Positions 9,109 to 33,262 of a stretch of DNA of 34,367 bases are shown here, piece by piece. Source of the DNA: Victivallaceae bacterium (GTDB taxonomy: Bacteria; Verrucomicrobiota; Lentisphaeria; Victivallales; Victivallaceae); contig JAZRBX010000120.1 of NCBI GenBank assembly GCA_045635285.1, positions 1-34,367 of the forward strand, written 5' to 3'. Position 1 is the first letter of the stretch; every line of letters starts with the position of its first letter. The notes under the pieces were generated by a model. It saw only the letters and a program-made list of their open reading frames with translations. It was not told where the DNA came from and did no database searches. The position numbers and the translations under genes are program-made.

Positions 9109-9136
9109 TTGATAACTTTGTAAGAAATTATATAAT
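9109..9136 (+). promoter_or_regulatory. Sigma70-like promoter candidate (alternative 1) for DUF1559 gene 1
   Basis: TTGATA (9109-9114), 16-nt spacer, TATAAT (9131-9136). Confidence 0.4.
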
Positions 9137-9206: not shown

Positions 9207-9236
9207 AACTTCTGATAATATTGATTATCGGAAGTT
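9207..9236. repeat. Palindromic element copy A1 (13-4-13, core ATTG)
   Basis: Sequence aacttctgataat-attg-attatcggaagtt. It has 13-bp arms with one T/C (G-U compatible) mismatch. It differs at one position from copy C1 at 27921-27950. Confidence 0.9.
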
Positions 9237-9368
9237 GAAAAAATAAGGAGATTAAGGAATTTAAGGAATTCAGAGAGGCTTGTTTTGAGCTGAAAACCTG
9301 AATTATCTGAACTCCCTGAAATCCATGAAAATGAATAAGAACTCACACCTTAACCAAAGGAGAAAATT
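9237..9368 (+). promoter_or_regulatory. Conserved leader upstream of DUF1559 gene 1 (homologous to 28011-28110)
   Basis: Three phased TAAGGA repeats start at 9244, 9253 and 9262. They are followed by gttttgagctgaaaac and then CT-rich tracts (ctgaactccctgaaatcc). The region aligns by eye with the leader of DUF1559 gene 3. Confidence 0.6.
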
Positions 9369-10172
9369 ATGAAAAACACCCTAAAACAACATCCGGTAAT
9401 CAATATTATCGGAAGCAAGTTCACCCTTATTGAACTGCTTGTTGTGATTGCAATTATCGCAATCCTCGCCGGCATGCTGCTCCCCGCTCTCGGTAAAGCC
9501 CGTGAACGCGCCAGAAGCGCCAGCTGTCTTTCCAATCTGAAACAGCATGGCCTTGTTGATCAGATGTATGCGCAGGATTATGACCAGTGGGTCGTTCAGC
9601 GTCTCGGTGGCATGTGGGACGGCACCAGTGATTGGGCAGGTGCATACAGCCGTTTGGGGTATTATGACGCAGGTACATCGCTTAATGCGTTCAGGTGTCC
9701 TGCTTTGGCAAATGATGTTGCTAATAATGATACCCGGCCTACCGCATATCAATATACCTATGGTGTTGAAACAAGTGCCAATAATATGAAGTTTGTTCCC
9801 AAAGCATATTTTCAAATTAATAATAACGGAACTGAAGGTAACCATAACCGTTTAATTACTTTGAAGCGTGTAGGCAGACCCGCAAACGCTTTCCATCATA
9901 TTGATTCTCTTTCCTCCTCATTGACCTATCAGACTTCCGGTATTGAAATCAATAATGGCGGCTCCAGCCGTCCTCATGCCCGTCACGGCGGCAGAATCAA
10001 CGCTGACTATCTTGACGGTCATGCTGAGAGCAAAACTCCTCAACAGTGGGCTGATGCTACTATCAACAGTTGCTTGTATATGAATCAGACTACCGGTACG
10101 GATTGGACCGTTGCATGTTTTGATGAAAACAAAACAAAGAAGACTTACGTTGGCAAATGGGAAGGCAATTGA
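9369..10172 (+). CDS. Prepilin-like N-terminal helix protein, DUF1559 / H-X9-DG family (copy 1)
   Basis: 267-aa ORF with an AAAGGAG RBS. It has the [37 protein letters not shown]-terminus and the C-terminal motif [12 protein letters not shown] (H, nine residues, DG). A terminator follows. Confidence 0.9.
9388..9417. repeat. Palindromic element copy A2 (core CAAT), embedded in codons 7-17 of DUF1559 gene 1
   Basis: Sequence aacatccggtaat-caat-attatcggaagca. It matches the reverse complement of C1 at 26 of 30 positions. It encodes (Q)HPVINIIGS. Confidence 0.85.
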
Positions 10173-10199
10173 TAATTACTGTTCTAATTTGAAAATACA

Positions 10200-10227: not shown

Positions 10228-10386
10228 ATGTTCTGTTTTTGAATGCGGGGATTGCGTTTCGATTGTGCTTTTTTAAAGAGGTTTCGGTGTTGAATATTGC
10301 TCTATTTTTCTGAATCAGTGATATATAAAAAGATGAAAAAATCTGTTGAAAAATGGAAAAATCTTCTCTTTTTAAACAAAAAAGAC

Positions 10387-10415
10387 TTGTTTTTTGAGAG
10401 TTTATACGCTATAAT
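10387..10415 (+). promoter_or_regulatory. Sigma70-like promoter for the DUF1559 gene 2 operon
   Basis: TTGTTT (10387-10392), 17-nt spacer, TATAAT (10410-10415). Confidence 0.5.
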
Positions 10416-10491
10416 TTAATCGAAACTCGACAGATTATTGCAGGAAAATGTAAATCTGTCAAAATATAAACTCTCAACTAAAGGAGAAAAA

Positions 10492-11256
10492 ATGAAGAAA
10501 AAATCACAATTCACTCTTATTGAACTCTTGGTCGTGATCGCCATCATCGCAATTCTCGCAGGTATGCTGCTCCCCGCCCTCGGCAAAGCCCGTGAACGCG
10601 CCAGAAGCGCCAGTTGTGTTTCCAATTTGAAACAGCACGCTCTTGTCGATATGATGTATGCCCAGGACAATGACGATTGGGTTCACAACTGGGGCGGCGG
10701 TATCGGTTGGGTAAATCCCAACGGTATGGCTTACTGGGCAGGTGTTTATGTCCGCAACGGCTACTACAATGAAAACAAGAGCGGCGACAATATTTTCAAA
10801 TGTCCTGCTTTTGCCAATACCGCAGTTGAAGATGCTCCCGAATGGCCGACCATGACTTACGGTGTCGTTACCAATGCAAATGACGGCAACTGGGAACCCC
10901 GTGCATTGCTGTTCTTCAATGATGATACCTGGCGTCTTATTTCTCTCAAACGCATTCAGAAACCCTCAAATACTTTCCATCACATCGACTCCATTGACGG
11001 AACTTGTGAAAATCAGACCGGTATGATGGGACTCGGTGAAAGTGCAGGTTCTTATACTCATGCCCGTCACAGCGGCAGAATCAATGCCGACTATCTTGAC
11101 GGTCATGCCGAAAGCAAGTCTCCGCAGCAGTGGGCTGATGCTTGTGCCAACAGCTTCTGCTATCAGAATACTTCCACCGGCGCAGACTTCACCGTCTGGT
11201 ATCGTGATGAAGCCAAAGAAAAGAAATCTGCTACCGGTAAATGGGAAGGCATGTAA
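10492..11256 (+). CDS. Prepilin-like N-terminal helix protein, DUF1559 / H-X9-DG family (copy 2)
   Basis: The start is set at the ATG at 10492 ([15 protein letters not shown]...), which follows an AAAGGAG RBS. The ORF track extends to 10438. The C-terminal motif is [12 protein letters not shown]. The C-terminal third is very similar to copy 1. Confidence 0.9.
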
Positions 11257-11278
11257 TATATTTTGCAAGGAGAAAAAA

Positions 11279-12928: not shown

Positions 12929-12949
12929 AATATACTGAATCTGTAAAGT

Positions 12950-12988
12950 AACTGCTGCAATCTTTTTACAGTTTGCAGCAGTTTTTTT
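12950..12988 (+). terminator. Rho-independent terminator
   Basis: Stem aactgctgcaa (12950-12960) / ttgcagcagtt (12973-12983), followed by a T-run to 12988. Confidence 0.8.
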
Positions 12989-13047
12989 ATACAGTGCAGA
13001 GATTTTCGTGAAAAAGAGGATAAATAGCAAAAAAAATTGCTTGCAAC

Positions 13048-13076
13048 TTGACAAAGCAGTTAAGCTGTGTTATAAT
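13048..13076 (+). promoter_or_regulatory. Consensus sigma70 promoter (extended -10) for the P2-P3 operon
   Basis: TTGACA (13048-13053), a 17-nt spacer ending in TGt, then TATAAT (13071-13076). Both hexamers are perfect. Confidence 0.7.
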
Positions 13077-13125
13077 ACCTTATCCTTGTATTTTTAACCA
13101 TGAAATATTAAAGAAAGTAAGAAAA

Positions 13126-14745
13126 ATGAAAAAATTACTGTTGCTGATGTCTGTTGCTTTTGCAGCTGTGCTTTCTGCTCTTGAACCTGTGCCTGCTTTT
13201 ACGGCATGGAAAAAAGACGGCGCAGGTGAATTCAAGGTTACAGAAAAAAGTGCCGTTGTTACATTTGTGAAAGGCAATCGCCCCGCTGCTCTCAAATATA
13301 AACTCGCAGTCGATCCCGACGGCTATTATGTTTTTACAGGTAAATTCAAACGCAACAGCGTTGACAGTGTGCCGCAGATCGATTTTGTCAGCCGCAATGC
13401 AAAAAATCAGTGGCTCGGTCAGTATTTCGCCCCCAAAGTCAAGGAAGCTCCTGTCGGTGAATGGCAGAATTTTGAAATTCGTGCTTATTTGAACAGCAGT
13501 ACCGCTTTCGCTGATATTACAGTAGGTTCTTTCGGCGGTTCTGTTGAAATCAAAGATCTCGCCTTTACCAAAAAAACTATCCACGACCGCCCCGCAAACG
13601 CTCCCGCTCCCGAATATTGGGTGAATATGGACTGGTGGGACAATGTTTATTATTGCAAAAATATGGGACTTAAAGATTACCGTGAGGCGGAAATCATCAA
13701 CTACTTCAAAGATTGCAAAGCCAAAGGCGTTACCGGCGTGCAGTGGCGTATCTCCGCTACCGGAACTGTGCTTTATCATACCAAAGGCGCAGCAACTCTC
13801 TATCCAGGAAAAGATATTGATTTGAATTTGCTGAATGAAAATCAGCGCCGTGTCGCTGAATCAATAAAGGCTTTTGACCCGCTCGCAGTCGCAGTTCGTG
13901 AAGCAAAGAAAAACGGTATCGAACTCTATATCTGGCTGACTCTCTCTGACGAAGGTTCAAAACATGATAAAATCAAACATTTGTCTTTCCCGGATTTCCT
14001 TATCAAAAATCCCGACTGCCATCTGCTCGACCGTCAGGGCAAACCGCTCTACGGCACTATTTGTTACAGCGATCCCCGCGCCCGTGAATACCGCTTGAAT
14101 ATGATCAAAGAATTGCTCGAATACGGTGCAGACGGGCTTTATATCTGTACTCGCAGTCACAGTTTCTTCTTCGGCAATGACAAAGGCGATGATTACGGCT
14201 TCAACAAATGTATCGTTGATGAATACAAAAAACGCTACGGCGTCGATATCTTGACCCAGGATTTTGATATCAAAAAATGGCGCGACCTCAAAGGTGAAGG
14301 TTTTGATATTCTCATTGAAGAAATCGGCAAACTTGCCCATGCAAAAAATCAGAAGGTCCGCCTCGGTCTTGCTTATATGACTCTTTCAAACAAATATCTC
14401 AGTTCAAACTGGGGTAAAATGACTGTCGATGTTGAAAAATATCTCCGCAACGGCTGGATCGATTCTGTCGTTACAGGTCAGTATCGTGTCAGTGCCGACT
14501 TCGGCAGCAAAGAGGTCAACCGCTTCAGAGAATATGCCCGTCCCGATCAGAAAATTTATTATTGGGCGCAGCTCTATTTCTACGGTCAGCGTATGGCGAC
14601 TGCTCTTGAAATCCTCAATCAGGCGGCATCTTTCAACTTCCTCGGTGCAAACGGCGCGATCATGCACGAATCTCTTAATCTTGAAGAACGCCCCGAAGAA
14701 TTCTTTGACTTTTTCGGTATCTGGTTTAATTCTTTTGCAAAATGA
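13126..14745 (+). CDS. Secreted CBM-like plus GH-like TIM-barrel protein, paralog P2
   Basis: The start is set at the ATG at 13126 (MKKLLLLMSVAFAAVLSA signal peptide). The ORF track's start at 13048 coincides with the promoter -35 box. It shares the family motifs listed for P1. Confidence 0.8.
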   Translation: MKKLLLLMSVAFAAVLSALEPVPAFTAWKKDGAGEFKVTEKSAVVTFVKGNRPAALKYKLAVDPDGYYVFTGKFKRNSVDSVPQIDFVSRNAKNQWLGQYFAPKVKEAPVGEWQNFEIRAYLNSSTAFADITVGSFGGSVEIKDLAFTKKTIHDRPANAPAPEYWVNMDWWDNVYYCKNMGLKDYREAEIINYFKDCKAKGVTGVQWRISATGTVLYHTKGAATLYPGKDIDLNLLNENQRRVAESIKAFDPLAVAVREAKKNGIELYIWLTLSDEGSKHDKIKHLSFPDFLIKNPDCHLLDRQGKPLYGTICYSDPRAREYRLNMIKELLEYGADGLYICTRSHSFFFGNDKGDDYGFNKCIVDEYKKRYGVDILTQDFDIKKWRDLKGEGFDILIEEIGKLAHAKNQKVRLGLAYMTLSNKYLSSNWGKMTVDVEKYLRNGWIDSVVTGQYRVSADFGSKEVNRFREYARPDQKIYYWAQLYFYGQRMATALEILNQAASFNFLGANGAIMHESLNLEERPEEFFDFFGIWFNSFAK

Positions 14746-14755
14746 TATTTGAAAA

Positions 14756-16375
14756 ATGAAAAAAATAGTATTAATCTTTCTGCTTTTGTCCGCCGCTGTA
14801 TGCATGTTCGCAGAGAATATGCTTCCCGCTTTCAATTTATGGAAAAAAATCGGTAACGGAGATATCAGTTTTTCTGAAAATGCTTTTGCCGTAACTCATA
14901 AAGGCGGAAAAAATGCCGCCGGTTTGACTTTCAGAGCCAAAGTAGAACCAAGTTCATGGTATTCCGTCAAAGGTAAAATCAAAAAATCCGCCGGTGCAAA
15001 TCCCGTCGTTTACTGTATCGTCCGTACCGCTAAAAACGGCTGGCTTTATCAATACAACGGCGCCGGCGTCAGACAGGCAAAAGCAGGTGAATGGTGCGAT
15101 TTTGAAATCCGTGTATGTCTGCCCGAAAGTGCAGCTGTTGCTGATTTGACTTGCGGCACCTCCAAAGGTTCTGTCGAATTCAAGGATGTCGTTTTTGAAA
15201 AATCTTCATGGCAGGACCGTTCCGATAAAGCAGGCAAATTGGAATACTGGATCAATATGGATTATTGCGATGAGATCGTTTATGCTCACAATATCGGTGT
15301 CGTCGGTGATGATCTTTATGATGAAAATGATATTGTCAAATTCTTTGAAGACTGCAAAAAGAACGGCGTTACCGGCGTGCAGTGGCGTGTTTCCCTCTTC
15401 GGCCACATGCTCTATCACAGCAAAGGTGCGGCGACAGTTTATCCCGGTTCAATGGATGTCAGCAAGCTCAATGAAAGCGGTATCAAGGTCGCAAAAGTTA
15501 TTCAGAAAATCGATCCTCTGGCTATCGCCGTCCGTGAAGCCAGAAAACACGGCATTGAAATTTATATCTGGATGACTCTTTCAGATGAGGGTTATAAACG
15601 GCTTGTTCCTGATTACTGCACCCCTGAATTCCTTATCAAAAATCCGCAGTACCACATGCTTGACCGTAACGGCAAACCGTGGAAAGGAACTATCTGTTAC
15701 AGCGAACCCGAAGCCCGCGAATACCGTTTGAACATTGTCAAAGAATTGCTTGAATACGGCGCAGACGGTCTTTATCTCTGCACCCGCTCTCACTGCAGCG
15801 TTTTTGATCATGATCCCAAAGCACTTTACGGTTTCAATAAAACTGTTGTTGAAGAATACAAAAAACGCTACGGCGTCGATATTCTGACCCAGGATTTTGA
15901 TGTTAAAAAGTTTCAGGCTCTCAAAGCGGAGGGCATTGACATGCTTATCGAAGAAATTGCCAAACTCGCTCATGCCAAAAATCAGAAAGTACGCCTCGGC
16001 GTTTCAATCGTTTCTCTGGCCAACAACAGCTGGAAAAATAACTGGGGAGAAGTCCCCTGTCATTGGCAGATGTATCTGGAAAAGGGCTGGATCGATTCCA
16101 TCGTCAGCGGTCAGTACAATGTCAGCGATTATTTTGCCTCCCGTGAATACAACCGTTTCGCTGAATTTGCAAAAGAGGGAAATAAATTTTATTCATGGGC
16201 ACAGATGGTCAAATACGGCGCAGGTGTTTATACCTATGAACAGTTGAGAGATCAGGCAAAAATTTTCAATTTCCTCGGTGCCAACGGCGGGATCTATCAT
16301 GAAGCGATAAATATGGAGGAACGACCTGATAAAATTTTTGCTCCTCTCGGTAAATTTTACAGCAATCCTCAATAA
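14756..16375 (+). CDS. Secreted CBM-like plus GH-like TIM-barrel protein, paralog P3
   Basis: 539-aa ORF lying 10 nt after P2. It has a signal peptide (MKKIVLIFLLLSAAVCMFA) and shares the family motifs. Confidence 0.8.
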   Translation: MKKIVLIFLLLSAAVCMFAENMLPAFNLWKKIGNGDISFSENAFAVTHKGGKNAAGLTFRAKVEPSSWYSVKGKIKKSAGANPVVYCIVRTAKNGWLYQYNGAGVRQAKAGEWCDFEIRVCLPESAAVADLTCGTSKGSVEFKDVVFEKSSWQDRSDKAGKLEYWINMDYCDEIVYAHNIGVVGDDLYDENDIVKFFEDCKKNGVTGVQWRVSLFGHMLYHSKGAATVYPGSMDVSKLNESGIKVAKVIQKIDPLAIAVREARKHGIEIYIWMTLSDEGYKRLVPDYCTPEFLIKNPQYHMLDRNGKPWKGTICYSEPEAREYRLNIVKELLEYGADGLYLCTRSHCSVFDHDPKALYGFNKTVVEEYKKRYGVDILTQDFDVKKFQALKAEGIDMLIEEIAKLAHAKNQKVRLGVSIVSLANNSWKNNWGEVPCHWQMYLEKGWIDSIVSGQYNVSDYFASREYNRFAEFAKEGNKFYSWAQMVKYGAGVYTYEQLRDQAKIFNFLGANGGIYHEAINMEERPDKIFAPLGKFYSNPQ

Positions 16376-16390
16376 AAATCCATTTGCAAG

Positions 16391-16419
16391 TCCCTGCTTT
16401 TACGGCAGGGATTTTTTTT
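16391..16419 (+). terminator. Rho-independent terminator
   Basis: Stem tccctgc (16391-16397) / gcaggga (16405-16411), followed by TTTTTTTT. Confidence 0.7.
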
Positions 16420-16481
16420 ATATCAGGTTTTAAAAAATTGTATAAAAACATATAAAATTGTAACTAAAATAAAAATCTTTG

Positions 16482-16510
16482 TTGCAAATTATTTAAATCG
16501 TGCATATAGT
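16482..16510 (+). promoter_or_regulatory. Sigma70-like promoter for the P4-GH20 operon
   Basis: TTGCAA (16482-16487), 17-nt spacer, TATAGT (16505-16510), with TG two nucleotides upstream of the -10 box. Confidence 0.45.
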
Positions 16511-16571
16511 AACTTTCAGTGTCAGAATTTATAAAATCGCAAACTCTTAAAAAATTATAAAAGGAGGAAAA

Positions 16572-18188
16572 ATGAAAAAAATAATCTTTTTGGCATCGAT
16601 TCTGTTAACTGCTGCTGTATATGCAGAAAATCTGCTGCCGTCTTTTGATCAATGGCGTCATACCGGTCCCGGTGTCTTCAAATGGAACGGCGGACAGCTT
16701 GCTGCCGAACATAAAGGAGGAAGCAGTAATGAAGCCGCTCTGGTAAGAAATATTTCTATTGACGGTGAAGGTTATTATGTAATGAAGGGCAAAGTCAAAA
16801 GAGTTGATGAAAAATCCGTTCCTGCCATTTATTTTATCAGCCGTACCGAGAAAAAAGGCTGGATTTTTCAGTATAACGCATACGACGCTTTGAATGCAAA
16901 GGTCGGAGAATGGACAGATTTTGCAATTCGTGCTTATATGCCCAATATCGCAAAAATTCTTGAAGTCGGTGTCGGATGTAAGAACGGTAAAGTTGAAGTA
17001 AAAGACCTTGTTCTTGAAAAAACTGATGCAAAAAATCGTGCTGACAATGCTCCCTCTGCTGAATACTGGATCAATATGGACTTCGGAGATGAAGTTGTTT
17101 ACAGTAAAAATATCGGTATTGATTTGTACGGCGAAAAGGCTATCGAACAGTTTTTCAAAAAATGCAAAGCCGCCAAAGTTACCGGTGTTTTGTGGCGTGT
17201 TTCCGAGTTCGGTCAGATGCTTTATTACAGCAAAGGTGCCGCAACCGTTTATCCCGGCAAGATGCCTTATGATAAACTTCCTGAACATCTGAAAAAAATG
17301 GCTGTCATCATGCAGTTTATCGACCCGCTTGCCGTCGCTGTTCGTGAAGCAAAAAAGAACGGCATCAAACTCTTTATTTGGATGACTCTCTCCGATGAGG
17401 GGTACAAGCGTGAAATCCCCAATTACGCTTTCCCCGAATTTCTGCTCAAAAACCCCGATTGCCACATGCTTGACAAAGAGGGAAAACCCTGGTACGGCAC
17501 TATCTGTTACAGCGAACCAAAATCCAGAGAATACAGACTTAATATTGTTAAAGAATTGGTCGAATACGGAGCAGACGGGCTTTATCTCTGCACCCGTTCA
17601 CACTGTTTCACTTTCGGTAATGACAAAGATGAACGCTACGGCTACAACAAAGCCATCGTTGATGAATATCAGAAACGCTACGGCGTAAACATCCTCAAAG
17701 AAGATTTTGACAAGAAAAAATGGTACGAACTCCGTGCCGAAGGTATTGATATTCTCATCGAAGAAATCAGCAAAATCGTCAAAGCCAAAAATCAGGAGAT
17801 CATGCTCGGCGTTTCCAGTACTTCCATCTCCAACGGCCGCTGGGAAAATAACTGGGGCGACAAAGTTCCGCTGCATTGGCAGAAATATTTGCAGAACGGC
17901 TGGATCGACCACATCCTTGCCGGTCAGTACAAAGTCGGTAATTATTGGATCGGCAGAGAAACCAACCGTTTCAAATCTGCCGCACTGCCGCACAATAAAT
18001 TGTATTTCTGGGCGCAGATGATTGAATACGGTAAAGGTGTCTACACCCTTGATCAGTTGAAAAATCAGGCAGAAGCTATCGTTTTTCACGGAGCAAACGG
18101 CGGTATGTATCATGAGGCAATCAATATGGAAGAGCAGGTCGAAAGCGTCATGAAACCGCTCGGAGAATGGTACAGCAAACAAAAGTAA
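16572..18188 (+). CDS. Secreted CBM-like plus GH-like TIM-barrel protein, paralog P4
   Basis: 538-aa ORF with an AAGGAGG RBS and a signal peptide (MKKIIFLASILLTAAVYA). It shares the family motifs (YWINMDF, DPLAVAVREAKKNGIKLFIWMTLSDEGY, EYGADGLYLCTRSHC, EYQKRYGVN). Confidence 0.8.
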   Translation: MKKIIFLASILLTAAVYAENLLPSFDQWRHTGPGVFKWNGGQLAAEHKGGSSNEAALVRNISIDGEGYYVMKGKVKRVDEKSVPAIYFISRTEKKGWIFQYNAYDALNAKVGEWTDFAIRAYMPNIAKILEVGVGCKNGKVEVKDLVLEKTDAKNRADNAPSAEYWINMDFGDEVVYSKNIGIDLYGEKAIEQFFKKCKAAKVTGVLWRVSEFGQMLYYSKGAATVYPGKMPYDKLPEHLKKMAVIMQFIDPLAVAVREAKKNGIKLFIWMTLSDEGYKREIPNYAFPEFLLKNPDCHMLDKEGKPWYGTICYSEPKSREYRLNIVKELVEYGADGLYLCTRSHCFTFGNDKDERYGYNKAIVDEYQKRYGVNILKEDFDKKKWYELRAEGIDILIEEISKIVKAKNQEIMLGVSSTSISNGRWENNWGDKVPLHWQKYLQNGWIDHILAGQYKVGNYWIGRETNRFKSAALPHNKLYFWAQMIEYGKGVYTLDQLKNQAEAIVFHGANGGMYHEAINMEEQVESVMKPLGEWYSKQK

Positions 18189-25632: not shown

Positions 25633-26340
25633 ATGAAAAAGGAATATACCAAAAAGAATGCCGACAGTAAACCTGCCAGTATGATCGTACTTGATATTTT
25701 CGCTCAAAAAATAATTAACGGAGAATACCGCTCCGGGGACCGTTTGAAAGAAACTCTGCTTGCCGTGGAATTCGGAGTCAGCCGCAATGCTGTCCGCGAA
25801 GCACTCAATCAGCTGGTCGGTTATCATGTGGTTGAATATCTGCCGTATTGCGGTTACCGAATGAAAGTTTTTACCAACCGTGATATTCTGGAATGGTTTG
25901 AATTCAGAGAGGCAATTGAACCGATCGCCGCCCGCCGTCTGGCGATCATTCGTCCTGCTGAAGCTATTGAAAAACTTGGAGAATATATTGAAAAAATGCA
26001 GTTGGCAAGAAAAAACGGGGACGAAGAGACGGTCAATAATCTGGATATGCTTTTTCATTTGTCTTTGATTGAATATTGTGATAATACTGTTTTCAATAAG
26101 GTCTTGAGCAAGGTTTATTTTACTTCTGTTTTTTCAAATTACGATAAACTGCCTCTTCAGAAATCGGAATTGTCCGTGGATGAAAATTTTTTCCAGACCA
26201 ATCGGATACACAGCGAAATTTTGCGTTGTATCATAGAGGGCAATGCGGATGATGCCGAAACGATTACGCGGAAACATGTGCATTGGCAGGTCAGAGGTAT
26301 GATGCATTATATTGCACTTGTTAAAAATTCTGATAATTAA
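25633..26340 (+). CDS. GntR family transcriptional regulator (FadR/FCD-type C-terminal domain)
   Basis: 235-aa ORF. The winged-HTH is RLKETLLAVEFGVSRNAVREALNQLVGYHVVE, and the C-terminal domain is all-helical. Confidence 0.85.
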   Translation: MKKEYTKKNADSKPASMIVLDIFAQKIINGEYRSGDRLKETLLAVEFGVSRNAVREALNQLVGYHVVEYLPYCGYRMKVFTNRDILEWFEFREAIEPIAARRLAIIRPAEAIEKLGEYIEKMQLARKNGDEETVNNLDMLFHLSLIEYCDNTVFNKVLSKVYFTSVFSNYDKLPLQKSELSVDENFFQTNRIHSEILRCIIEGNADDAETITRKHVHWQVRGMMHYIALVKNSDN

Positions 26341-26374: not shown

Positions 26375-26403
26375 TTGACTTTTGTTTTAAAGTGTGCTAT
26401 TTT
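26375..26403 (+). promoter_or_regulatory. Sigma70-like promoter (extended -10)
   Basis: TTGACT (26375-26380), a 17-nt spacer ending in TGc, then TATTTT (26398-26403). It lies 50 nt upstream of the ATG at 26454. Confidence 0.5.
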
Positions 26404-26453: not shown

Positions 26454-27908
26454 ATGTACAGAGAAAAAATTTTAGGTGGGTTGCTCGGCAAAGCTGTCGG
26501 TGGAACTCTCGGTCAGATTTATGAAGGCGTGAGAGGTCCTCTCAATTTAACTTATTACGATCCTGTTCCCACAGAAATGATCCCCAATGATGACTTGGAT
26601 CTTCAGGTCATGTGGATGGACAAAATCGCCCGCGAATGGAACGGCGTTCTCAAATCCGAAAAATTCGGTAAGGCATGGGTCGATTCCATGCATTTTTGCT
26701 GTGATGAATACGCCATCGCCACCAGAAATTTGCAGATCGGTATTATGCCGCCTGCATCCGGCCGTTATGATAATTCTTTCAAAAACGGTCTTGGTGCCGC
26801 CATTCGCAGTGAACTCTGGGCTTTTCTTGCTCCCAACAACCCTGATCTTGCCGCCAAATATGCGGTTTATGATGCACAGGTCGATCATACCGGCGACGGT
26901 GTTTATGCGGAAGTTTTCTGGGCTGCTCTTGAAAGTATGGCCTTTGAAGAATCCGACATCCGTGTGCTTATCAATAAAGCTCTCAACTACATCCCCGACG
27001 GCAGTGAACTCAAACAGGCAATCAAAGATACTATCGTATGGAGTGATGAAATCGGTGATATGATGAAGGTCCGCCGTCAGATCCTCTTGAAATACGGCAG
27101 TGCCAATTTCACTGATATTATTATGAATGTTCCGTTCATGATCGCCGCTCTGCTCCTCGGCAAAGGCAATTTCAGCGACACTATCTGCATGGCTGTCAAC
27201 TGCGGCAGAGATGCTGACTGCACCACTGCTACTGTCGGTGCTGTTCTCGGTATTATCAATCCTGACGGCATTGAAGAAAAATGGCTCAAACCGATCGGCA
27301 GAGCTTTGGTCATCAATAAAGAAATTACCGGAGTTCAGCATCCTGATACTTTGGACGGTTTCGTTGACCTTATTATGGAATGGCAGGGCAAAATCACCTG
27401 CGTTGATATAAAAGAACCTGAACTTGATTGGAGCAAATATCAAATCCATGCCAAGTGCGGTATTTCTTTGGAAAATTCCTGCGGCGACTTCGCCCGTCGT
27501 AAATTTTCCGTTGACGGTGAACTGAAAGATGTTCTGTTGCCCGGCAACAGAATTGATGTTGATTTCAGCGATCTGCCTCCCGACTGCTTCAAAATTTATG
27601 AGATGACCATGCATGTTCCCTGCGACGGTCAGTATGCTGTTATTTCCGCCTCTACAGGCAAATGCTGCACATGGCTTAACGGCGAGCTGCTTTTTGCCCA
27701 GGTCTGCGGTAATTTCGTTCCCGGCAGTCATCGTTTCCACACTAATCAGGGCAAGATCATGAATCTTACCAAAGGAGATTACACTCTGCGTATCGCTTTG
27801 GCTCCGGTTGATGAGGAGCAGATGTCGACACCTCTGCATTTTATGCTCGTAGACGATCATTTCATGTATGTGAATGACGCTTTTGATCGTGATTGTTTCA
27901 AGAAGTAA
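26454..27908 (+). CDS. ADP-ribosylglycohydrolase-fold protein with C-terminal jelly-roll (sugar-binding-like) domain, cytoplasmic
   Basis: 484-aa ORF with an AAGGAG RBS. It carries ARH-family motifs: the N-terminal Gly-rich GGLLGKAVGGTLG, IPNDDLDLQ, and NCGRDADCTTATVGAVLG (compare GGDTDT.AA..GA..G). About 150 aa of beta-rich sequence follow at the C-terminus. Confidence 0.75.
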   Translation: MYREKILGGLLGKAVGGTLGQIYEGVRGPLNLTYYDPVPTEMIPNDDLDLQVMWMDKIAREWNGVLKSEKFGKAWVDSMHFCCDEYAIATRNLQIGIMPPASGRYDNSFKNGLGAAIRSELWAFLAPNNPDLAAKYAVYDAQVDHTGDGVYAEVFWAALESMAFEESDIRVLINKALNYIPDGSELKQAIKDTIVWSDEIGDMMKVRRQILLKYGSANFTDIIMNVPFMIAALLLGKGNFSDTICMAVNCGRDADCTTATVGAVLGIINPDGIEEKWLKPIGRALVINKEITGVQHPDTLDGFVDLIMEWQGKITCVDIKEPELDWSKYQIHAKCGISLENSCGDFARRKFSVDGELKDVLLPGNRIDVDFSDLPPDCFKIYEMTMHVPCDGQYAVISASTGKCCTWLNGELLFAQVCGNFVPGSHRFHTNQGKIMNLTKGDYTLRIALAPVDEEQMSTPLHFMLVDDHFMYVNDAFDRDCFKK

Positions 27909-27920
27909 TTCTGTTTGCGC

Positions 27921-27950
27921 AACTTCCGATAATATTGATTATCGGAAGTT
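27921..27950. repeat. Palindromic element copy C1 (perfect 13-4-13, core ATTG)
   Basis: Sequence aacttccgataat-attg-attatcggaagtt. It starts 13 nt after the TAA at 27906-27908 and is followed by a T-rich tract. Confidence 0.9.
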
Positions 27951-28110
27951 GTTTGAGGTTGTTTTTAAACTTTTTTATTTTTGTTTAATGTTGTGTTTAT
28001 TTTATTATCAGAAAATTAAGGAGGTTAAAGGAGTTTAAAGAATTTAGTGTTTCAAGCTCAAAAATAAGACTCCCAAAATTCCTGAAACTCTCAAAACTCC
28101 TTATTCCTGC
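27951..28110 (+). promoter_or_regulatory. Leader bracketed by C1/C2: T-rich tract plus a block homologous to 9237-9350
   Basis: TAAGGAGG, TAAAGGAG and TAAAGAAT repeats start at 28017, 28026 and 28036. They are followed by gtttcaagctcaaaaa and then CT-rich tracts (gactcccaaaattcctgaaactc...ctcctta). TAAGGAG (28017-28023) is perfectly complementary to CTCCTTA (28097-28103). Confidence 0.6.
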
Positions 28111-28140
28111 AACTTCCGATAATCAATATTACAGGAAGTA
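28111..28140. repeat. Palindromic element copy C2 (core CAAT, degenerate right arm)
   Basis: Sequence aacttccgataat-caat-attacaggaagta. It matches the reverse complement of C1 at 27 of 30 positions and ends 23 nt upstream of the ATG at 28164. Confidence 0.85.
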
Positions 28141-28163
28141 AATTAAAAAAGAAAGGGCTTATT

Positions 28164-28913
28164 ATGAAAAAGCAACAAAATTTCACTCTGATTGAACTTC
28201 TGGTCGTGATCGCAATTATCGCAATTCTTGCAGGTATGCTGCTCCCCGCACTCGGAAAAGCTCGTGAACGCGCCCGCGCTGCAAACTGTATCAGCAATCT
28301 CAAAAATTGTATTCAGGCTTCAATTTTTTATGCTGATGATCATGAAGGATGGAATTACCTCTCCATTGATACTTCCGCAAATAAACTCGGTTCACGCCTG
28401 ATCGGCTGGTCAGAATGGCTTATTTGCTATGGCTACATGAAAGAAGACACCAAAGCTTTCGGCTGCCCTTCAATGGAAGGTCCCAAAGATGAAGCTTCTG
28501 CAAGTTATTACGGCAATACCATGACTTTCGGAGTTCCTGCTTGCCCCGCTCATGTGCTGCCGGCTGAAATTTGTTCCACAACCAACGACGGTGCAAACCA
28601 TTATCTCAACGCCAAGAGAATTGACAATCCCTCCTACTTCACCTATTTCGCAGATACTGTAAATGCCGCAGGGCAGCAGGTCAACAGCTGGTATATCACC
28701 AACAGCTGGAACGCTTATATGCACGCACGCCATAACAACGCTGTCAATATGGCATTTATGGACGGTCATGTCGGAACTCACAAGCCGATGGAGATTTGGG
28801 ATATAAATCTCGGAAGCAAGCACTCCTTTTCAACTTGCTATTCAACCGCAAGAAGCGGCTGCAACTGGTACAATAAAGATATTGTTATCAAGAAATTCAA
28901 TGTAAATCAATAA
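28164..28913 (+). CDS. Prepilin-like N-terminal helix protein, DUF1559 / H-X9-DG family (copy 3)
   Basis: 249-aa ORF with the N-terminus [42 protein letters not shown] and the C-terminal motif [12 protein letters not shown] (H, nine residues, DG). Confidence 0.9.
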
Positions 28914-28921
28914 GGCTTGAA

Positions 28922-30406
28922 ATGAAAAAATTATTATTGCTCATCGGAGTTTCTACGATGTTATTAAACCTTAATGCAGAACCTGCCAAAAAGTATAAAT
29001 ATACTCTTTTTGTTCCCGATCCCGGGGAGGTCGCTACTGCAGAAGCTCAACGCAATTCTCCTAAACCTCTGGCAATCAATTTTAATATTGATCTTAAAAA
29101 AGATATGCCCAAACTCCGCCCCCTGCACGGTGTGGCAAATTATGTGCCGATCTCTTACAATGCCATTGCTTACAAGCATGGCATCAGAGAGGGACTCAAA
29201 GAATTAAAACTGCCGTACACCTATCTGCATGATGATCCCATTACCAATTTGGGCAGAAACGTCGTTGATGTCAGTCGTATTTTTCCGCTTTTCCATGCGG
29301 ATGAAAACGATCCTGCCAACTATCTTTTCGCCGAAACTGACGCTTATATCAAAATGATGATCGAAGACGGAGTCAAAGTTATTTTCCGCCTCGGCGAAAC
29401 TATTGAAAACGACGCTTTGCACTTCCGCACTGTTCCGCCCAAAGATTATGCCAAATGGACCCGCATCTGTTTGAATATCGTCCGCCACTACAACGAGGGC
29501 TGGGCAAACGGTCATCATTGGAACATTCAGGACTGGGCTGTTTGGGAAGAGCCTAATAATCCTAATTTGTGGCATGGCTCTTTTGAGCAGTATATGCAGC
29601 TTTACAAAGCATTTGCTCCTGAATTCAAAAAGGCGTTCCCGAATCTTCGCGTCGGCGGTCCGCAGACAACGACTCTCGGTTATCCCTTCCTTGAAAAATT
29701 CCTGCAATTTGTGCAGAAAGAAAAACTGCCGCTGGATTTTGTCGCCTATACCGCATACTATCTGACCCCTGCTGATATGCTGGCAGAAAGTGTCAAACGC
29801 AGAGAAATGCTCGACAAGTACGGCTTTGAAAATGTGCCGCTCTGGACCAATGAATGGCATTGCAGCCCCTATTGGTATGAGTACAACGATCCCGTCAGCT
29901 ACGGCAGAGAGGAAAATCGTTTCGGCGGTACAGAGGGCGGCGTTTTCGCGGCCACGGTTCTTTGCGGTTTGCAGGACAGTCCGCTTGAAAGAGCATGTTT
30001 TTATTCTGCATGTCTGATCAACGGCTGGGGAATGTTTGACTGCGACGGCAGACCTGCACCGGTTTATTATGTTTTCAAGAAATTCTCTCCGCTGTATCAG
30101 AATTCCGTCAAACGCATTGCAGTTGATGTCAAAGGTACATCCGCCAATACACAGGCGATCGCTTCTTTGAACAAAGACGGAAATATTGAATTTTTCTGCG
30201 GTATTTTCAGCACAAATGAGGGAGATTTGACGGTCAATGTTCCCGAAGGTTACAAACTTGACCTTATTCAGAGTCTTGACGATCTGACAACTCCTTATTA
30301 TGTCGAAGTTCCGTCTCACCTTTACAGCACCGACGGCAAAACTTTGGAACTGCACAAACTTAAATGTGCTTCTTCCTACTATATAGTTTTCAAACCTGTA
30401 AAATAA
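28922..30406 (+). CDS. Secreted clan GH-A glycoside hydrolase, GH39-like
   Basis: 494-aa ORF with a signal peptide (MKKLLLLIGVSTMLLNLNA). The acid/base-type motif is WAVWEEPNNPNLW followed by ...LRVGGP (compare FEIWNEPN...VGGP of GH39). The candidate nucleophile context is PLWTNEWH. Confidence 0.65.
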   Translation: MKKLLLLIGVSTMLLNLNAEPAKKYKYTLFVPDPGEVATAEAQRNSPKPLAINFNIDLKKDMPKLRPLHGVANYVPISYNAIAYKHGIREGLKELKLPYTYLHDDPITNLGRNVVDVSRIFPLFHADENDPANYLFAETDAYIKMMIEDGVKVIFRLGETIENDALHFRTVPPKDYAKWTRICLNIVRHYNEGWANGHHWNIQDWAVWEEPNNPNLWHGSFEQYMQLYKAFAPEFKKAFPNLRVGGPQTTTLGYPFLEKFLQFVQKEKLPLDFVAYTAYYLTPADMLAESVKRREMLDKYGFENVPLWTNEWHCSPYWYEYNDPVSYGREENRFGGTEGGVFAATVLCGLQDSPLERACFYSACLINGWGMFDCDGRPAPVYYVFKKFSPLYQNSVKRIAVDVKGTSANTQAIASLNKDGNIEFFCGIFSTNEGDLTVNVPEGYKLDLIQSLDDLTTPYYVEVPSHLYSTDGKTLELHKLKCASSYYIVFKPVK

Positions 30407-30416
30407 AGGATAATTT

Positions 30417-32243
30417 ATGAAAAAAATCTCTTTACTGCTGCTTTTCAGCTTTGTTCTGACAGCTGCGTACAGCAAGGATGTAAAAAGGTTCACCACTATT
30501 GACATTCTTGACAATTATTGGAAAACTTATTGTGCAACTTACGGACCAGACGGCCCCGCTGAGAAACCTTTAAGTGCAGGTACTTACACCGTTGAAAATA
30601 TGCGTCAGATGATTGATGATATGGCAGAACTCGGTTTTGAGCGTGTTTACTGGATTACCAATTACGGCGATATGTTGTACGGTCAGGTCGCAGCACTGGA
30701 TAACGGAAAAAAAGTTCACGGTACTGAACTTCTGAAAATCCTTGTCGATCAGGCTCACAAACGTAATATGGAACTGTACGTCATTTATAAACCCTTTGAA
30801 ACCGGTGGCGGCACTCATCCTGATGAACTTCCCCGCCCGAAAGAACTTTTTTATGTCAAAAATACTGACGGATGGCAGGGCGCACTGGAATTTACAGTCA
30901 AAAATCCGCATACCCGTCTGCGCCGCAGAATGCCTCCGCGTCCTGCCAATGACAAAGTTCATACCATTACTCTCGTAAGCCGTGCAGGTATTCCGATCAC
31001 TTTGCAGAGAGAGGATTTTCAACTTTTTGCAAGTTCTGAAAACGGCAGATACCGTGAGATCACCGATTTTACTGTCGAAGCCGGAGTTACTGAAAAATAT
31101 CCCAAACTGCAGAAAATCACTTTCACTCCCGCAAACTTGAACGACAATGATAAATTCTTCATCATCAAATGTTCGAAGAAAAACAATCCCGTTCAGATCG
31201 TTCATGATACTTTCTCTATTGTCGAACTTCGCAATTCAGACGGTGTTATTCTGCCTGAAAGTATCGCCACCGGCAGGATCACTCTTAAAGGTTTGAATGA
31301 TTCATGGCCTCATCAGCTTTTCAAAGTATCAAATAAAGATACCCGCACTCCCGAAGAATGGATACTTAAAGGAGATTTCGGTTCAACTTTGGAAAAAGGT
31401 GCTTTCACCTATGACTGCACCTCATCAACATCCAGCCATTATGTCGATAGTGACGGTTACATCGCATTCAGCGCATGCCCGATCGAATACCTCGGAAGTC
31501 TGCATCCGGCATATCCCGAAGTCATGGAACTTTGGAAAGAGATGGTACGCAGAATTTCCGCCAGCGGTTGTGACGGTATTGACATCCGTTTCGGCGACCA
31601 TGCCAGCTGGACGATTTACGGAGAAGAATACGGTTTCAATGCTCCTGTCGTTGCAGAATACAAAAAACGCTACGGCGTTGATCCCGAAAAAGAACCCTAT
31701 GACCGTGCTTTGTGGCGTCAGCTCAATGGCGAATACCTTACTGAATTCATGAAATGGTGTTCCAAAACTCTGCATCCCAAAGGTCAGAAACTTCATGCTC
31801 ATATTTCAATTACTATGGCTGATCGTGATTTCTGGCGCCGCAATGATGCTCCCGCCAACTTCAAATATGAGTGGAAAAAATGGATGCAGGAAAAAATTAT
31901 TGACGGCGTCAATATGAAATATCTGCCTTTCCCGTGGGACGGCAGAGACTCCAGCGGCTTGCAGTATGCTTATGCCATTATCAAGTTTGCTCAAAAATAC
32001 CAAATTGAAACAAACATCGAAGCCCGTACGATTTGGTGGGTGGAACCGACAGACTCAACTTCGCCTCCGTTTACTGATGCCCAGTACAATCGTTTTCTCA
32101 AAAATTTTCGTATTTTGCATGCGAGCGGTGTCGATGCGTTGAATTACTATGAAGTAAGCGACTTTTTCAAGATCGACGGATTCGGCAATCCGAAATATGC
32201 AGATAAATTCCTGAAACTTATGAACGATGTTGAGGCTGAATAA
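30417..32243 (+). CDS. Secreted GH-like TIM-barrel protein, divergent fifth member (P5) of the P1-P4 family with a large internal insertion
   Basis: 608-aa ORF with a signal peptide (MKKISLLLLFSFVLTAAYS). It shares these blocks with P1-P4: YWITNYGD, AHKRNMELYVIYKPFETGG, AYPEVMELWKEMVRRISASGCDGIDIRFGDHAS, YGFNAPVVAEYKKRYGVDP, WKKWMQEKIIDGV. It has no N-terminal CBM-like module. Confidence 0.7.
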   Translation: MKKISLLLLFSFVLTAAYSKDVKRFTTIDILDNYWKTYCATYGPDGPAEKPLSAGTYTVENMRQMIDDMAELGFERVYWITNYGDMLYGQVAALDNGKKVHGTELLKILVDQAHKRNMELYVIYKPFETGGGTHPDELPRPKELFYVKNTDGWQGALEFTVKNPHTRLRRRMPPRPANDKVHTITLVSRAGIPITLQREDFQLFASSENGRYREITDFTVEAGVTEKYPKLQKITFTPANLNDNDKFFIIKCSKKNNPVQIVHDTFSIVELRNSDGVILPESIATGRITLKGLNDSWPHQLFKVSNKDTRTPEEWILKGDFGSTLEKGAFTYDCTSSTSSHYVDSDGYIAFSACPIEYLGSLHPAYPEVMELWKEMVRRISASGCDGIDIRFGDHASWTIYGEEYGFNAPVVAEYKKRYGVDPEKEPYDRALWRQLNGEYLTEFMKWCSKTLHPKGQKLHAHISITMADRDFWRRNDAPANFKYEWKKWMQEKIIDGVNMKYLPFPWDGRDSSGLQYAYAIIKFAQKYQIETNIEARTIWWVEPTDSTSPPFTDAQYNRFLKNFRILHASGVDALNYYEVSDFFKIDGFGNPKYADKFLKLMNDVEAE

Positions 32244-32245
32244 TT

Positions 32246-33262
32246 ATGAAAAAACTTTTTCTTTTCGTCGTTGCCGCTTTTTGTGCAATTTCTGCCGCGG
32301 CATCAGAATTCCGTCCGCTTTACCGTATGAATACCAACGGTAATGAAATCTTAAAAAATTTCAGTATTTACAGCCATCCCGGATATGGTGCCAAGTTGAG
32401 CAGGACTGTCGTTGATGGTGTTCCTGCTGTCAAATTGAGCGTTACCGATGCTAAAAATCCTCTGGAATGGTACACCAAAATCCAGCTCCGTCTGACTGTA
32501 AATTCAAAAATTGAAGCATGCAGTGAGTACCGCATCCGTTTCCGCTGCCGTACCGACAGAGTTGCAAATTTCCGTTTCTGCTGTCAGGAAGCAGTTACTC
32601 CGTGGGGATTGCTGACTGAACACCGTCACGGTCATGTGCTGGCAACTCCTGATTGGCAGGATGTGGAATACACTTTCACCGCCACCAAAGATTCAAATGT
32701 TTCCGCATGGCTGCCCAATTTTGAATGCGGTATGCTTGGCAAAGATAATTCACTTTATATAACTGATCTGGTCGTGGAAGCTCTCGACGCAGAAAAGACC
32801 ATAGTTATTGCCAAGCCCGATCCGCAGGGTATGCAGGTTTATTGTCAACCCGGATTCAAGGTGCAGAAAAAGAACAGCACTTTCAACGGTTCCAAAGTCT
32901 GCGGTATTTATCTGGAAAATGCTCCTGCAAATATTACCAATGCTTCACAGGTGCAGTATCGTTTCCCGGTGACGGTAACTATTGTCAAGGGCGCATCCTA
33001 TCGTCTGTCATTCTATCACAAAGCTGACAAAGCTGCCGCATGTTTGGTACAGGTCCAGCGTGGAGTTCATCCGTGGAGTATGCCTTCTCCGCTGGCTTTG
33101 AGAAACTTCAAAACCAATACCGAATGGGATTATTTTGAAATGAATTTTACCTCCGGTGAAAATTACAATAAACTCATGTTTCTGCCCAATATCAGTATCG
33201 GTCTTGTTGGCAAAGGCAATACTTTTTATCTTCGTGATGTCAAATTTGAAAGAGTTGACTGA
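32246..33262 (+). CDS. Secreted protein made of two tandem CBM-like beta-sandwich modules
   Basis: 338-aa ORF lying 2 nt after P5, with a signal peptide (MKKLFLFVVAAFCAISAAAS). The two halves have the same pattern, for example SEYRIRFRCR...WQDVEYTFTA...GKDNSLYITDLVVE and ASYRLSFYHK...WDYFEMNFTS...GKGNTFYLRDVKFE. Confidence 0.7.
   Translation: MKKLFLFVVAAFCAISAAASEFRPLYRMNTNGNEILKNFSIYSHPGYGAKLSRTVVDGVPAVKLSVTDAKNPLEWYTKIQLRLTVNSKIEACSEYRIRFRCRTDRVANFRFCCQEAVTPWGLLTEHRHGHVLATPDWQDVEYTFTATKDSNVSAWLPNFECGMLGKDNSLYITDLVVEALDAEKTIVIAKPDPQGMQVYCQPGFKVQKKNSTFNGSKVCGIYLENAPANITNASQVQYRFPVTVTIVKGASYRLSFYHKADKAAACLVQVQRGVHPWSMPSPLALRNFKTNTEWDYFEMNFTSGENYNKLMFLPNISIGLVGKGNTFYLRDVKFERVD

Follow-up and report, generated by a model that had tools for sequence, protein, structure and literature searches.

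Palindromic sites ahead of a DUF1559-type gene in a Victivallaceae contig as probable members of a family of invertible cassettes in Lentisphaeria

Results

Layout of the locus

The DNA analysed here (the window) is a 34,367-nucleotide (nt) stretch from a Victivallaceae bacterium (GenBank assembly GCA_045635285.1, contig JAZRBX010000120.1, positions 1 to 34,367). This study concerns two palindromic sites, C1 and C2, lying between an ADP-ribosylglycohydrolase-family gene and an operon led by a DUF1559-type, pseudopilin-like gene (gene 3). The C1/C2 pair is referred to as locus 2; locus 1 is a similar pair ahead of another DUF1559-type gene (gene 1). Pfam assignments identify the window as a sugar-utilisation region, with four tandem GHL10-like paralogues plus GH20, GH94, GH39 and CBM4_9 genes and a sodium:solute symporter. 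Its nearest relatives are metagenome-assembled genomes (MAGs) of Lentisphaeria/Victivallaceae. The comparisons described below make it quite probable that C1 and C2 are the recombination sites of a site-specific invertible cassette of about 190 base pairs (bp), which belongs to a Lentisphaeria family and at locus 2 stands in the OFF orientation, decoupled from translation. Coordinates are collected in Table 1.

The geometry of the two sites is as described in the initial annotation of this DNA. C1 (27921-27950) is a perfect 13-4-13 palindrome, AACTTCCGATAAT ATTG ATTATCGGAAGTT. It begins shortly after the stop codon of the upstream gene (27906-27908), 12 nt separating the stop from position 27921. 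C2 (28111-28140) reads AACTTCCGATAAT CAAT ATTACAGGAAGTA and departs from the reverse complement of C1 at three positions, all in the outer arm; it is followed, after 23 nt, by the ATG at 28164, and its reading frame is open and in frame with this ATG. The sites are spaced 190 bp apart, start to start, against 181 bp at locus 1 (9207/9388), and both loci have core ATTG on the left and CAAT on the right. With arms common to both sites and cores in mutually reversed form, the pair has the inverted arrangement that an inverton requires. The window contains four exact copies of the 13-mer arm, and one copy with a single mismatch, all inside the four sites. As the number of exact matches expected by chance in 2 x 34 kilobases (kb) is about 0.001, this recurrence is not fortuitous. 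A search of the whole window against Rfam returned no match, so the element is not a known riboswitch or leader RNA.

Table 1. Coordinates of sites, genes and signals in the window
Feature	Position	Strand	Description
C1, left crossover site	27920..27951	.	perfect 14-4-14: CAACTTCCGATAAT ATTG ATTATCGGAAGTTG, outermost pair C...G
C1 asymmetric core	27934-27937		ATTG
C2, right crossover site	28110..28141	.	CAACTTCCGATAAT CAAT ATTACAGGAAGTAA; inner arm perfect, outer arm with 3 mismatches
C2 core	28124-28127		CAAT
Locus 2 putative invertible cassette, interior, OFF orientation	27951..28110	-	homologous to 9237-9387 as reverse complement
Antisense of leader codons	27951..27969	-	GTTTGAGGTTGTTTTT = reverse complement of AAAAACAACCTCAAAC (K-N-N-L-K-Q)
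Shine-Dalgarno-like repeat module	28085..28109	-	sense CAGGAATAAGGAGTTTTGAGAGTTT; counterpart at locus 1 ATAAGGAGATTAAGGAATTTAAGGAATT
Locus 1 site pair	9207-9417		same pair type as C1/C2
Locus 1 left site	9207..9236	.	AACTTCTGATAAT ATTG ATTATCGGAAGTT
Locus 1 right site	9388..9417	+	AACATCCGGTAAT CAAT ATTATCGGAAGCA
Locus 1 cassette, ON orientation	9237..9387	+	Shine-Dalgarno AAAGGAG, ATG 9369, codons MKNTLKQ
Terminator ending the gene before locus 1	9062-9078
Sigma-70-like promoter, locus 1	9109..9136	+	TTGATA-16-TATAAT, 11/12; upstream of left site, outside cassette
DUF1559/N_methyl pseudopilin-like genes (three)	9369-10172; gene 2, real ATG 10493; 28164-28913		Pfam
Gene 3, DUF1559-type, pseudopilin-like	28164..28913	+	N_methyl PF07963, 5.8e-08
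Operon led by gene 3	28164-33262		GH39-like, GHL10-like, CBM4_9 genes
ADP-ribosylglycohydrolase-family gene, upstream of C1	26454..27908	+	PF03747, 5.9e-35
Promoter-like site of ADP-ribosylglycohydrolase gene	26375-26403	+	TTGACT-17-TATTTT with TG
GntR regulator gene	25633-26340
AraC regulator gene	2694-3542

Probable start-codon switches at locus 1 and in related contigs

At locus 1, the 151-bp interior ends in AAAGGAGAAAATT-ATG (9369), and the right site lies inside the coding sequence of gene 1, where it is translated immediately ahead of FTLIELL. The conserved N-terminus of the protein (FTLIELLVV...) thus follows the leader MKNTLKQ and the residues encoded by the site, and the cassette supplies a Shine-Dalgarno sequence and an ATG that is in frame through the gene-proximal site. 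When the cassette is flipped in silico, the frame ahead of FTLIELL has no ATG, GTG or TTG. Since the frame is open in the present orientation and startless in the flipped one, the cassette brings the ribosome-binding site and start codon, the promoter being fixed outside. Locus 1 would represent a start-codon switch in its ON state.

The same layout recurs in related DNA (contigs and proteins are designated below by L and P numbers, respectively). A leader of 16-17 residues ending in [IT]-x-G-[SR] directly before FTLIELL is found in 41 of the 120 closest gene 1 homologues, and 25 of the 120 start with MKNNLKQ. The codons CTT CCG ATA ATC AAT ATT ATC GGA AGT (LPIINIIGS) are the site itself, and contigs fetched for several of the leader proteins have a partner site upstream. 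The promoter is likewise fixed outside the cassette in L013b, L016, L043 and L047; the last of these has the smallest cassette, with 58 bp between sites and little beyond the Shine-Dalgarno sequence, ATG and leader. A DUF3413/sulfatase gene is preceded by the same switch, with leader MQNEQEKHDIIDIIGSN (L013 7852-8077, minus strand; L014 7287-7512), and here the core varies by strain with compensation (AGAT/ATCT versus AAAT/ATTT). Because the sulfatase gene carries the leader too, the leader is the footprint of a DNA site and not a prepilin signal. Scanning for the site in a genome collection that does not include the window's own genome yielded only two Lentisphaeria MAG contigs, in both of which it lies near the contig end, and one chance archaeal match. 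Six matches in a metagenome scan included no Lentisphaeria loci and none tied to a switch, and a viral scan with a leader-coding 19-mer gave chance matches only.

Evidence that the sites are crossover points

The cores differ among loci and are exact reverse complements within the pair in 10 of 12 pairs: ATTG/CAAT at both window loci, L043 and L050; GTGT/ACAC at L010; ATTA/TAAT at L013a and L016; TAAT/ATTA at L047; ATCT/AGAT at L013b; and ATTT/AAAT at L014b/L015b. L013b and L014b/L015b are orthologous loci from different strains, in which the core change is compensated at both sites. The arms are equally informative. At L010 only the core is inverted: the arms, together with about 15 nt of flank, are repeated directly. 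In L016 the arms are re-assorted, both arms of one site being of one type and both arms of the other site of the other type. The L016 combination is what would be expected from one inversion of an L010-type pair; transposon terminal inverted repeats or plain duplication cannot produce these arm patterns.

Comparison of homologous loci revealed both orientations among family members, as the initial annotation had proposed to look for. Beginning at the right-site core, L050 and L051, which come from separate samples in a single study, share 97.8% identity, and the preceding 164 nt match only when reversed. If the part of L050 between the core midpoints is inverted in silico, the sequence of L051 is obtained (244/262 identical, over all 260 nt; 108 nt are alignable without the flip) and MKNNLKQHDKINIIGSC / MKNNLKQHDKINIIGSCFTLIELL is restored. 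Similarly, L053 (ON) and L002 (OFF) share 94% identity from the core on but have unrelated sequence upstream of it. At the protein level, clusters at 90% identity contain ON and OFF forms: P0081 (MKNNLKQHDRINIIGS) versus P0130, and P0087 versus P0160 and P0161. The difference between P0081 (...KQHDRINIIGS) and P0130 is exactly the predicted inner-arm swap, and P0160 and P0161 read the antisense of the other end of the cassette. Several cluster members are N-terminally truncated gene calls. The suggestion that the C1/C2 pair brackets a segment whose orientation matters, implicit in the checks initially proposed, is thus borne out at the level of the family, in which such sites are real inversion breakpoints.

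These data suggest the following scheme. Each site would consist of two binding arms of about 13 bp around an asymmetric 4-nt core (T-NNNN-A as a 6-bp overlap). As the cores are mutually reversed, strand exchange would invert the segment between them and regenerate both sites. In typical members, with a fixed promoter upstream, one end of the cassette would provide the Shine-Dalgarno sequence, the ATG and about seven codons, and the gene-proximal site would be translated within the N-terminal leader MKNNLKQ-x-x-x-I-N-I-I-G-S. The ON orientation would join the start codon to the gene, and the OFF orientation would take it away.

Orientation and state of the locus 2 cassette

The interiors of loci 1 and 2 show homology only when one of them is reverse-complemented, with inverted matches of 79 nt and 69 nt (78-80% identity) in a repeat search. 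Their global alignment scores 50 in reverse complement and 23 in direct orientation, with 111 of 163 columns identical; shuffled controls score 3.8 +/- 2.3, with a maximum of 15. The genes downstream of both loci are on the plus strand, so the two cassettes are oppositely oriented relative to their genes. Opposed interiors combined with the same core polarity are the pattern expected if inversion proceeds by exchange within the cores of inverted sites, which turns the interior together with the inner arms. The 16-mer that follows C1, GTTTGAGGTTGTTTTT (27951-27966), is identical to that found after the left site of the OFF contig L050. As it is also the antisense of leader codons, the cassette of locus 2 stands in the OFF direction.

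Unlike locus 1, locus 2 lacks the elements of a start-codon cassette. The position of the cassette ATG is occupied by AAA (27967-27969; TTT on the sense strand), the cassette Shine-Dalgarno sequence is lost, and no in-frame start codon is present in either orientation. Gene 3 starts beyond the switch, at 28164, with its own Shine-Dalgarno sequence and ATG, and in this it resembles site-less genes of the family (gene 2 of the window, P0154, P0131). With a startless cassette and an autonomous gene start, inversion at locus 2 cannot switch translation of gene 3. It could alter only what a transcript from the ADP-ribosylglycohydrolase gene encounters: the C1 hairpin and a U-rich tract as the cassette now stands, a hairpin and purine-rich sequence if flipped.

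Locus 2 may nonetheless still invert: three of its four arms match the consensus perfectly, both cores are intact and matched, and L050, whose counterpart L051 carries the opposite orientation, has an arm (AGAAAGATATAAT) that is far more degenerate. We regard locus 2 as a derived and possibly inert member of the switch family, which matters less in itself than for the family that it exposed. The Shine-Dalgarno-like module of the cassette is conserved in locus 1 of the window, L001, L013b and L014b.

The cassettes contain three to four phased Shine-Dalgarno-like repeats (TTAAGGAA, ATAAGGAG) with the complement AACTCCTTAAATTCC some 40 nt away (repeats and complement at window 9237-9290 and 9300-9330, and at 28016-28048 and 28085-28109). 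This internal inverted repeat is symmetric about the centre of the cassette and could be a bend, a site for an accessory protein or a hairpin in the 5' untranslated region.

Read-through into the gene 3 operon

No convincing promoter was found inside the segment, in agreement with the initial annotation: the scan gave only a 9/12 match on the minus strand, and TTGAGC-N18-TAAACT (8/12), in a conserved block of the cassette, is too weak to call. Neither did it detect a canonical promoter anywhere from the upstream stop codon to the start of gene 3 at 28164, and there is no room for one between that stop codon and C1. The nearest plus-strand candidate is at 26375. Read-through from this site is the only evident source of transcription into locus 2, and the operon probably depends on it; we infer that inversion at locus 2 could affect the operon.

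How it might do so is debatable. The native C1 hairpin and the U-rich tract could stop or attenuate read-through, and the flipped orientation could admit transcription into 28164-33262. A precedent is the C. difficile cwpV switch (RecV tyrosine recombinase), whose inversion region has neither promoter nor open reading frame (ORF) and for which an intrinsic terminator was proposed to act on the OFF transcript (Emerson et al. 2009, PMC2784873). The locus 2 cassette, with no start codon and no convincing promoter, matches that description (PMC2784873). The C1 RNA forms a 15-pair hairpin of -23.2 kcal/mol (z = -6.1), followed by UUUGAGGUUGUUUUU in the native and CAGGAAUAAGGAG in the flipped orientation; either orientation gives a hairpin, and only the native one has the U-rich tail. 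The T-rich tract reported after C1 is indeed there (GTTTGAGGTTGTTTTT, then AAACTTTTTTATTTTTG). Yet UUUGAGGU fails the U-tract criterion of the terminator scan, which does not call a terminator, only four of the first 8 nt of the tail being U, and the proposal of a terminator or attenuator at C1 remains plausible but unproven. The tract is moreover explained by descent, as the antisense of leader codons, and left-site hairpins are no constant feature of the family. At locus 1, flipping gives a left site of -8.8 kcal/mol (z = 0.2), a poor hairpin, and the left-site arms of L050 are not complementary and form no hairpin. In full-length transcript folds, C1 pairs with C2 in both orientations. Such folds, considered as a means to discriminate between orientations, were uninformative, the two sites pairing either way.

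We hold attenuation at C1 to be a tentative possibility only, about as likely as the alternative that locus 2 is the decaying relic of a former start-codon switch, now neutral and either locked or flipping without consequence. A relic would be consistent with the change of the cassette ATG to TTT, the loss of the Shine-Dalgarno sequence, the self-starting gene 3 and the three mismatches in the outer arm of C2. Loss of the switch is also common, since the 90%-identity clusters include simple, site-less leaders (P0154, MKKT-FTLIELL; P0131), and L001, a relative whose contig is 95% identical to window 10330-12421, retains a solo site only. Against decay stand the perfection of three arms out of four, the intact and matched cores, the conserved internal modules and the case of L050, which has a much poorer arm and whose homologous locus is in the opposite orientation in L051. 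These opposing indications leave a neutral relic, too, a doubtful reading.

Weighing of the invertible-cassette interpretation

Two further explanations dispense with a switch altogether. If the element were a miniature inverted-repeat transposable element (MITE) bounded by 30-bp terminal inverted repeats and had landed at the two loci in opposite orientations, this could explain why C1 and C2 repeat each other in inverted form, why homologous interiors occur in both orientations at different loci and why cassettes recur at many loci. However, no target-site duplication is present at either window copy, the right site is fixed, in frame and directly before FTLIELL in dozens of genes, the arms are direct and the core alone inverted in L010, and a single gene occurs with either cassette orientation, the breakpoints falling in the cores. 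A MITE is largely refuted by these data and appears highly improbable. Equally remote is the notion that C1 and C2 are operators bound by a dimeric transcription factor, such as the GntR or AraC regulator encoded nearby, that closes a repression loop. The palindromic form of the sites, their spacing of about 18 helical turns and the proximity of regulator genes would suit such a role, but an operator has no need for an asymmetric, partner-reversed and covarying core; flipped interiors and ON/OFF forms would be left unexplained, as would the presence of the same sites ahead of many unrelated operons and within coding sequence.

Several observations weigh against an invertible cassette at locus 2. 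The cores of L014a/L015a are unmatched (ATTG versus TAAT) at one outer position, in a cassette that has a 300-bp insertion, and those of L044 are also unmatched (GTGC versus CAAT). Contig breaks at switches fit mixed orientations, but repeats could also cause them. An exact-protein look-up of gene 3 found no record elsewhere (nor did those of the NCBI-only homologues P0003 and P0016), and the case for inversion at locus 2 is drawn from relatives and from comparison with the paralogous locus 1. The switch may be a fossil, given the three mismatches in C2, the loss of the cassette start and the autonomy of gene 3. Finally, no cognate recombinase is encoded within the window and the searched flanks.

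Nature of the recombinase

Pfam analysis of all major ORFs of the window detected no recombinase domain, and phmmer searches with Hin and XerD found none among the ORFs of the fetched Lentisphaeria loci (up to ~10 kb on each side, as far as contig ends permitted). As no such gene is found in the window or beside related loci, the recombinase would act in trans and be encoded outside the window. We lean towards an Xer-like tyrosine enzyme, in preference to a serine invertase. The outer core positions vary among loci and match within pairs (position 4 in 9/10, position 1 in 10/10). An overlap of at least 4, probably 6 bp would demand this covariation, which the 2-bp crossover of a serine recombinase does not, and it is stronger evidence for the tyrosine class than the likeness to dif, the XerCD site.

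That likeness was evaluated with three dif sequences taken from PMC3025954. Read as 11-6-11 (ACTTCCGATAA TATTGA TTATCGGAAGT), the site has the layout of the 28-bp dif, with inner ATAA/TTAT and four variable central positions that covary between partners. It shares ATAA-T....A-TTAT with B. subtilis dif, and 9 of the 11 bases of its left arm ACTTCCGATAA are those of the XerC-side arm there, ACTTCCTAGAA (PMC3025954). In contrast to dif, the Lentisphaeria sites have no XerD arm (TTATGTNAANT), the right arm TTATCGGAAGT being an inverted copy of the left one, and they occur as inverted pairs, many per genome, with locus-specific centres. Since both arms are of the same type, the site is not a dif site and is at most a site for a single Xer-like enzyme. 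The overall identity to dif, 20/28, exceeds chance only marginally in this window and was equalled by 1 of 20 window shuffles, which weakens the Xer assignment to a mere lead; similarity to dif was accordingly rejected as proof of an Xer enzyme.

A small serine invertase (Hin/Gin/Mpi-like) with a 2-bp crossover is, in our estimate, unlikely. The central dinucleotide is non-palindromic in every core (TT, TG, GA, AA), as polarity needs, and L014a/L015a differ only at an outer position, their central TT/AA still matching. The cassette sizes of about 180-210 bp resemble Bacteroides Mpi switches and count for such an enzyme, and the half-site TTCCTGTAA, which may recall gix, could point the same way. 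On the other hand, a 2-bp crossover would not require positions 1 and 4 to covary within pairs, the site length and ATAA-N6-TTAT layout are dif-like, and some pairs are only 87-88 bp apart (L016, L047). The sites, being 13-4-13 (14-2-14 about the centre) with covarying outer core positions, also differ from the 26-bp, 12-2-12 sites of Hin and Gin, in which a match is needed at the central dinucleotide alone and which work with an enhancer within the invertible segment.

One can speculate, at long odds, that dif-like sites with locus-specific 4-nt address cores form a genome-wide network in Lentisphaeria. One trans-acting, possibly housekeeping, Xer would then independently switch translation initiation, by way of the ribosome-binding site and start codon, in dozens to hundreds of glycan-utilisation operons led by pseudopilin genes and in other genes such as a sulfatase. 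In such a network, loci with the same core (such as the two window loci, both ATTG) might also recombine with each other, shuffling cassettes or inverting large segments; between the window loci, an inversion or deletion would span 18.7 kb. Phages with inverted pairs of the same half-site (ATTATCGGAAG) in tail-fibre genes might borrow the enzyme.

Relation to known inversion systems

Inversion switches as a kind are known. The E. coli fimS and the Mpi-controlled Bacteroides fragilis polysaccharide promoters lie on invertible segments of ~200-300 bp upstream of surface or glycan loci, and promoter invertons of this type are many per genome, with the recombinase encoded elsewhere. In the window-type switches, by contrast, it is the ribosome-binding site and start codon that flip, while the promoter stays outside, and the site structure differs. 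In the Mycoplasma inversion systems, sites lie in the 5' leader of a multigene family, a gene is joined to a single promoter and start region, and clustered genes are shuffled onto one expression site. The vpma/Xer1 and vsa/HvsR systems (e.g. PMC2268961) rely on an Xer-like tyrosine recombinase for inversion of surface-lipoprotein genes; the Lentisphaeria genes differ in each having their own two-site ON/OFF cassette, at dispersed loci, with no recombinase adjacent.

A close parallel to locus 2 is cwpV, where an invertible segment of ~195 bp lies between a fixed upstream promoter and the gene, control is exerted after initiation and several switches share a recombinase whose gene lies elsewhere; like the cwpV segment, that of locus 2 holds neither promoter nor ORF. 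The Lentisphaeria cassettes differ in that they typically contain a Shine-Dalgarno sequence, ATG and first codons, with the gene-proximal site translated; in their full 13-4-13 palindromic sites, where cwpV has simple inverted repeats; in that the terminator is not conserved in the family; and in phylum. Partial intergenic invertons, with one site in coding sequence and the other intergenic (Milman et al. 2023, PMC9881135; Chanin et al., 10.1101/2023.03.11.532203), are similar in that inversion alters the gene product or its start. The surveys describe mostly long, shufflon-type domain exchanges, whereas here cassettes of 60-200 bp swap the translation-initiation region only. Neither survey mentions Lentisphaerae or DUF1559.

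What appears to be new is the variant: a dispersed Lentisphaeria family with palindromic, dif-like sites, a translated gene-proximal site, a portable initiation cassette and locus-specific cores. In full-text literature searches, no paper was found that connects inversions of this kind with DUF1559, Victivallis or Lentisphaerae. Searching for invertons and Lentisphaerae retrieved only a paper on Type I restriction-modification invertons, and for DUF1559 and inversion an unrelated genomics paper. Lentisphaeria (Victivallales) are common in gut and rumen but have hardly been studied, and hundreds of their DUF1559 pseudopilin-like genes front glycoside-hydrolase operons. As the switch footprint is found in the first 17 codons of a third of the closest homologues of the window gene, phase variation by start-codon inversion may rank among the main levels at which these organisms regulate glycan foraging or surface display. 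For annotation, switch genes acquire a puzzling conserved leader or, when OFF, are called with truncated N-termini, and metagenome assemblies tend to break at switch sites. The locus-specific 4-nt cores and their compensatory changes constitute a natural data set on the overlap-homology rule of recombinases, and the motif AAT-NNNN-ATTATCGGAAG offers a simple means to find and count switches and to seek the enzyme by co-occurrence.

Variation among related loci and other observations

A number of minor features were noted in the course of the analysis. In the window, the four tandem GHL10-like paralogues (11036-18188) are ~1.8 kb each and 64-81% identical in nucleotide sequence, and two tandem GFO/IDH/MocA oxidoreductase paralogues (290-2610) are 73% identical. 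Comparison of L001 1-247 with window 9100-10330 shows that gene 1 of the window is missing from the relative: promoter, solo left site and a cassette fragment are joined directly to window position 10330, upstream of gene 2. The outer arm of the L001 site (TGCTTCCTGTAAT) resembles the diverged outer arm of C2.

A GC-rich segment of ~300-400 bp (..gagcgaagcgaagtaagcgatggcaagaaattgccgagcagcgaggttaaccgaagcgagcc..) recurs inside cassettes of unrelated loci (L010 ~3620-3800; L014 ~9370-9620; L043 ~9590-9760; L044 ~2400-2560). It is missing from the orthologous L013a cassette; insertion of a small repeat or mobile element into the switches is the probable explanation. L043 9262-10049 and L044 2010-2865 share the same gene and cassette but have different upstream genes and left cores (ATTG versus GTGC), a difference that points to a rearrangement or an exchange on the left side of the switch. 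L052 (1-290) contains a divergent pair of DUF1559 genes, separated by about 190 bp of mirror-symmetric intergenic sequence; both genes have a Shine-Dalgarno sequence, ATG, leader and site of their own, and the plus-strand cores, AAAC and CAAT, are incompatible. Contigs L011, L012, L045, L046, L017, L049, L051 and L053 start in a cassette or at a site, L011 (1-20) beginning in the left-site core, and L002 ends in such a position.

Sites resembling those of the window were also seen elsewhere. In the metagenome scan, what looks like a Firmicute-type chromosomal dif (ACTTCCGATAATCAATATTATGTAAACC / AACTTCCGATAATCAATATTATGTAAACC) is present at L004 10-30 and L005 1076-1096; it shares the left arm and central region with the window sites, and in L004 the dif-like site, deoB and an XerD-like ORF are on one short contig. 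In IMG/VR, 25 phage contigs carry CGATAAT-NNNN-ATTATCGGAAG. A search of the phage flanks fetched (roughly 3-8 kb; Pfam/PHROGs, phmmer) found no invertase beside the sites; in L026, a phage integrase is 4.5 kb from a similar site. In most of the phage contigs the sequence is ..CGATAAT GGGT ATTATCGGAAGTTTTGAGGGGTGGGT.., in a tail-fibre-like ORF downstream of the tape-measure gene, and the site is translated in the frame of the Lentisphaeria leader (P-I-M-G-I-I-G-S-F). Three phage contigs have two inverted copies 880-914 bp apart, in what looks like a tail-fibre inversion system that employs this half-site (L040 6644-8457, with sites at 7221-7242 and 8135-8156; L021 562-1463; L028 5519-6454).

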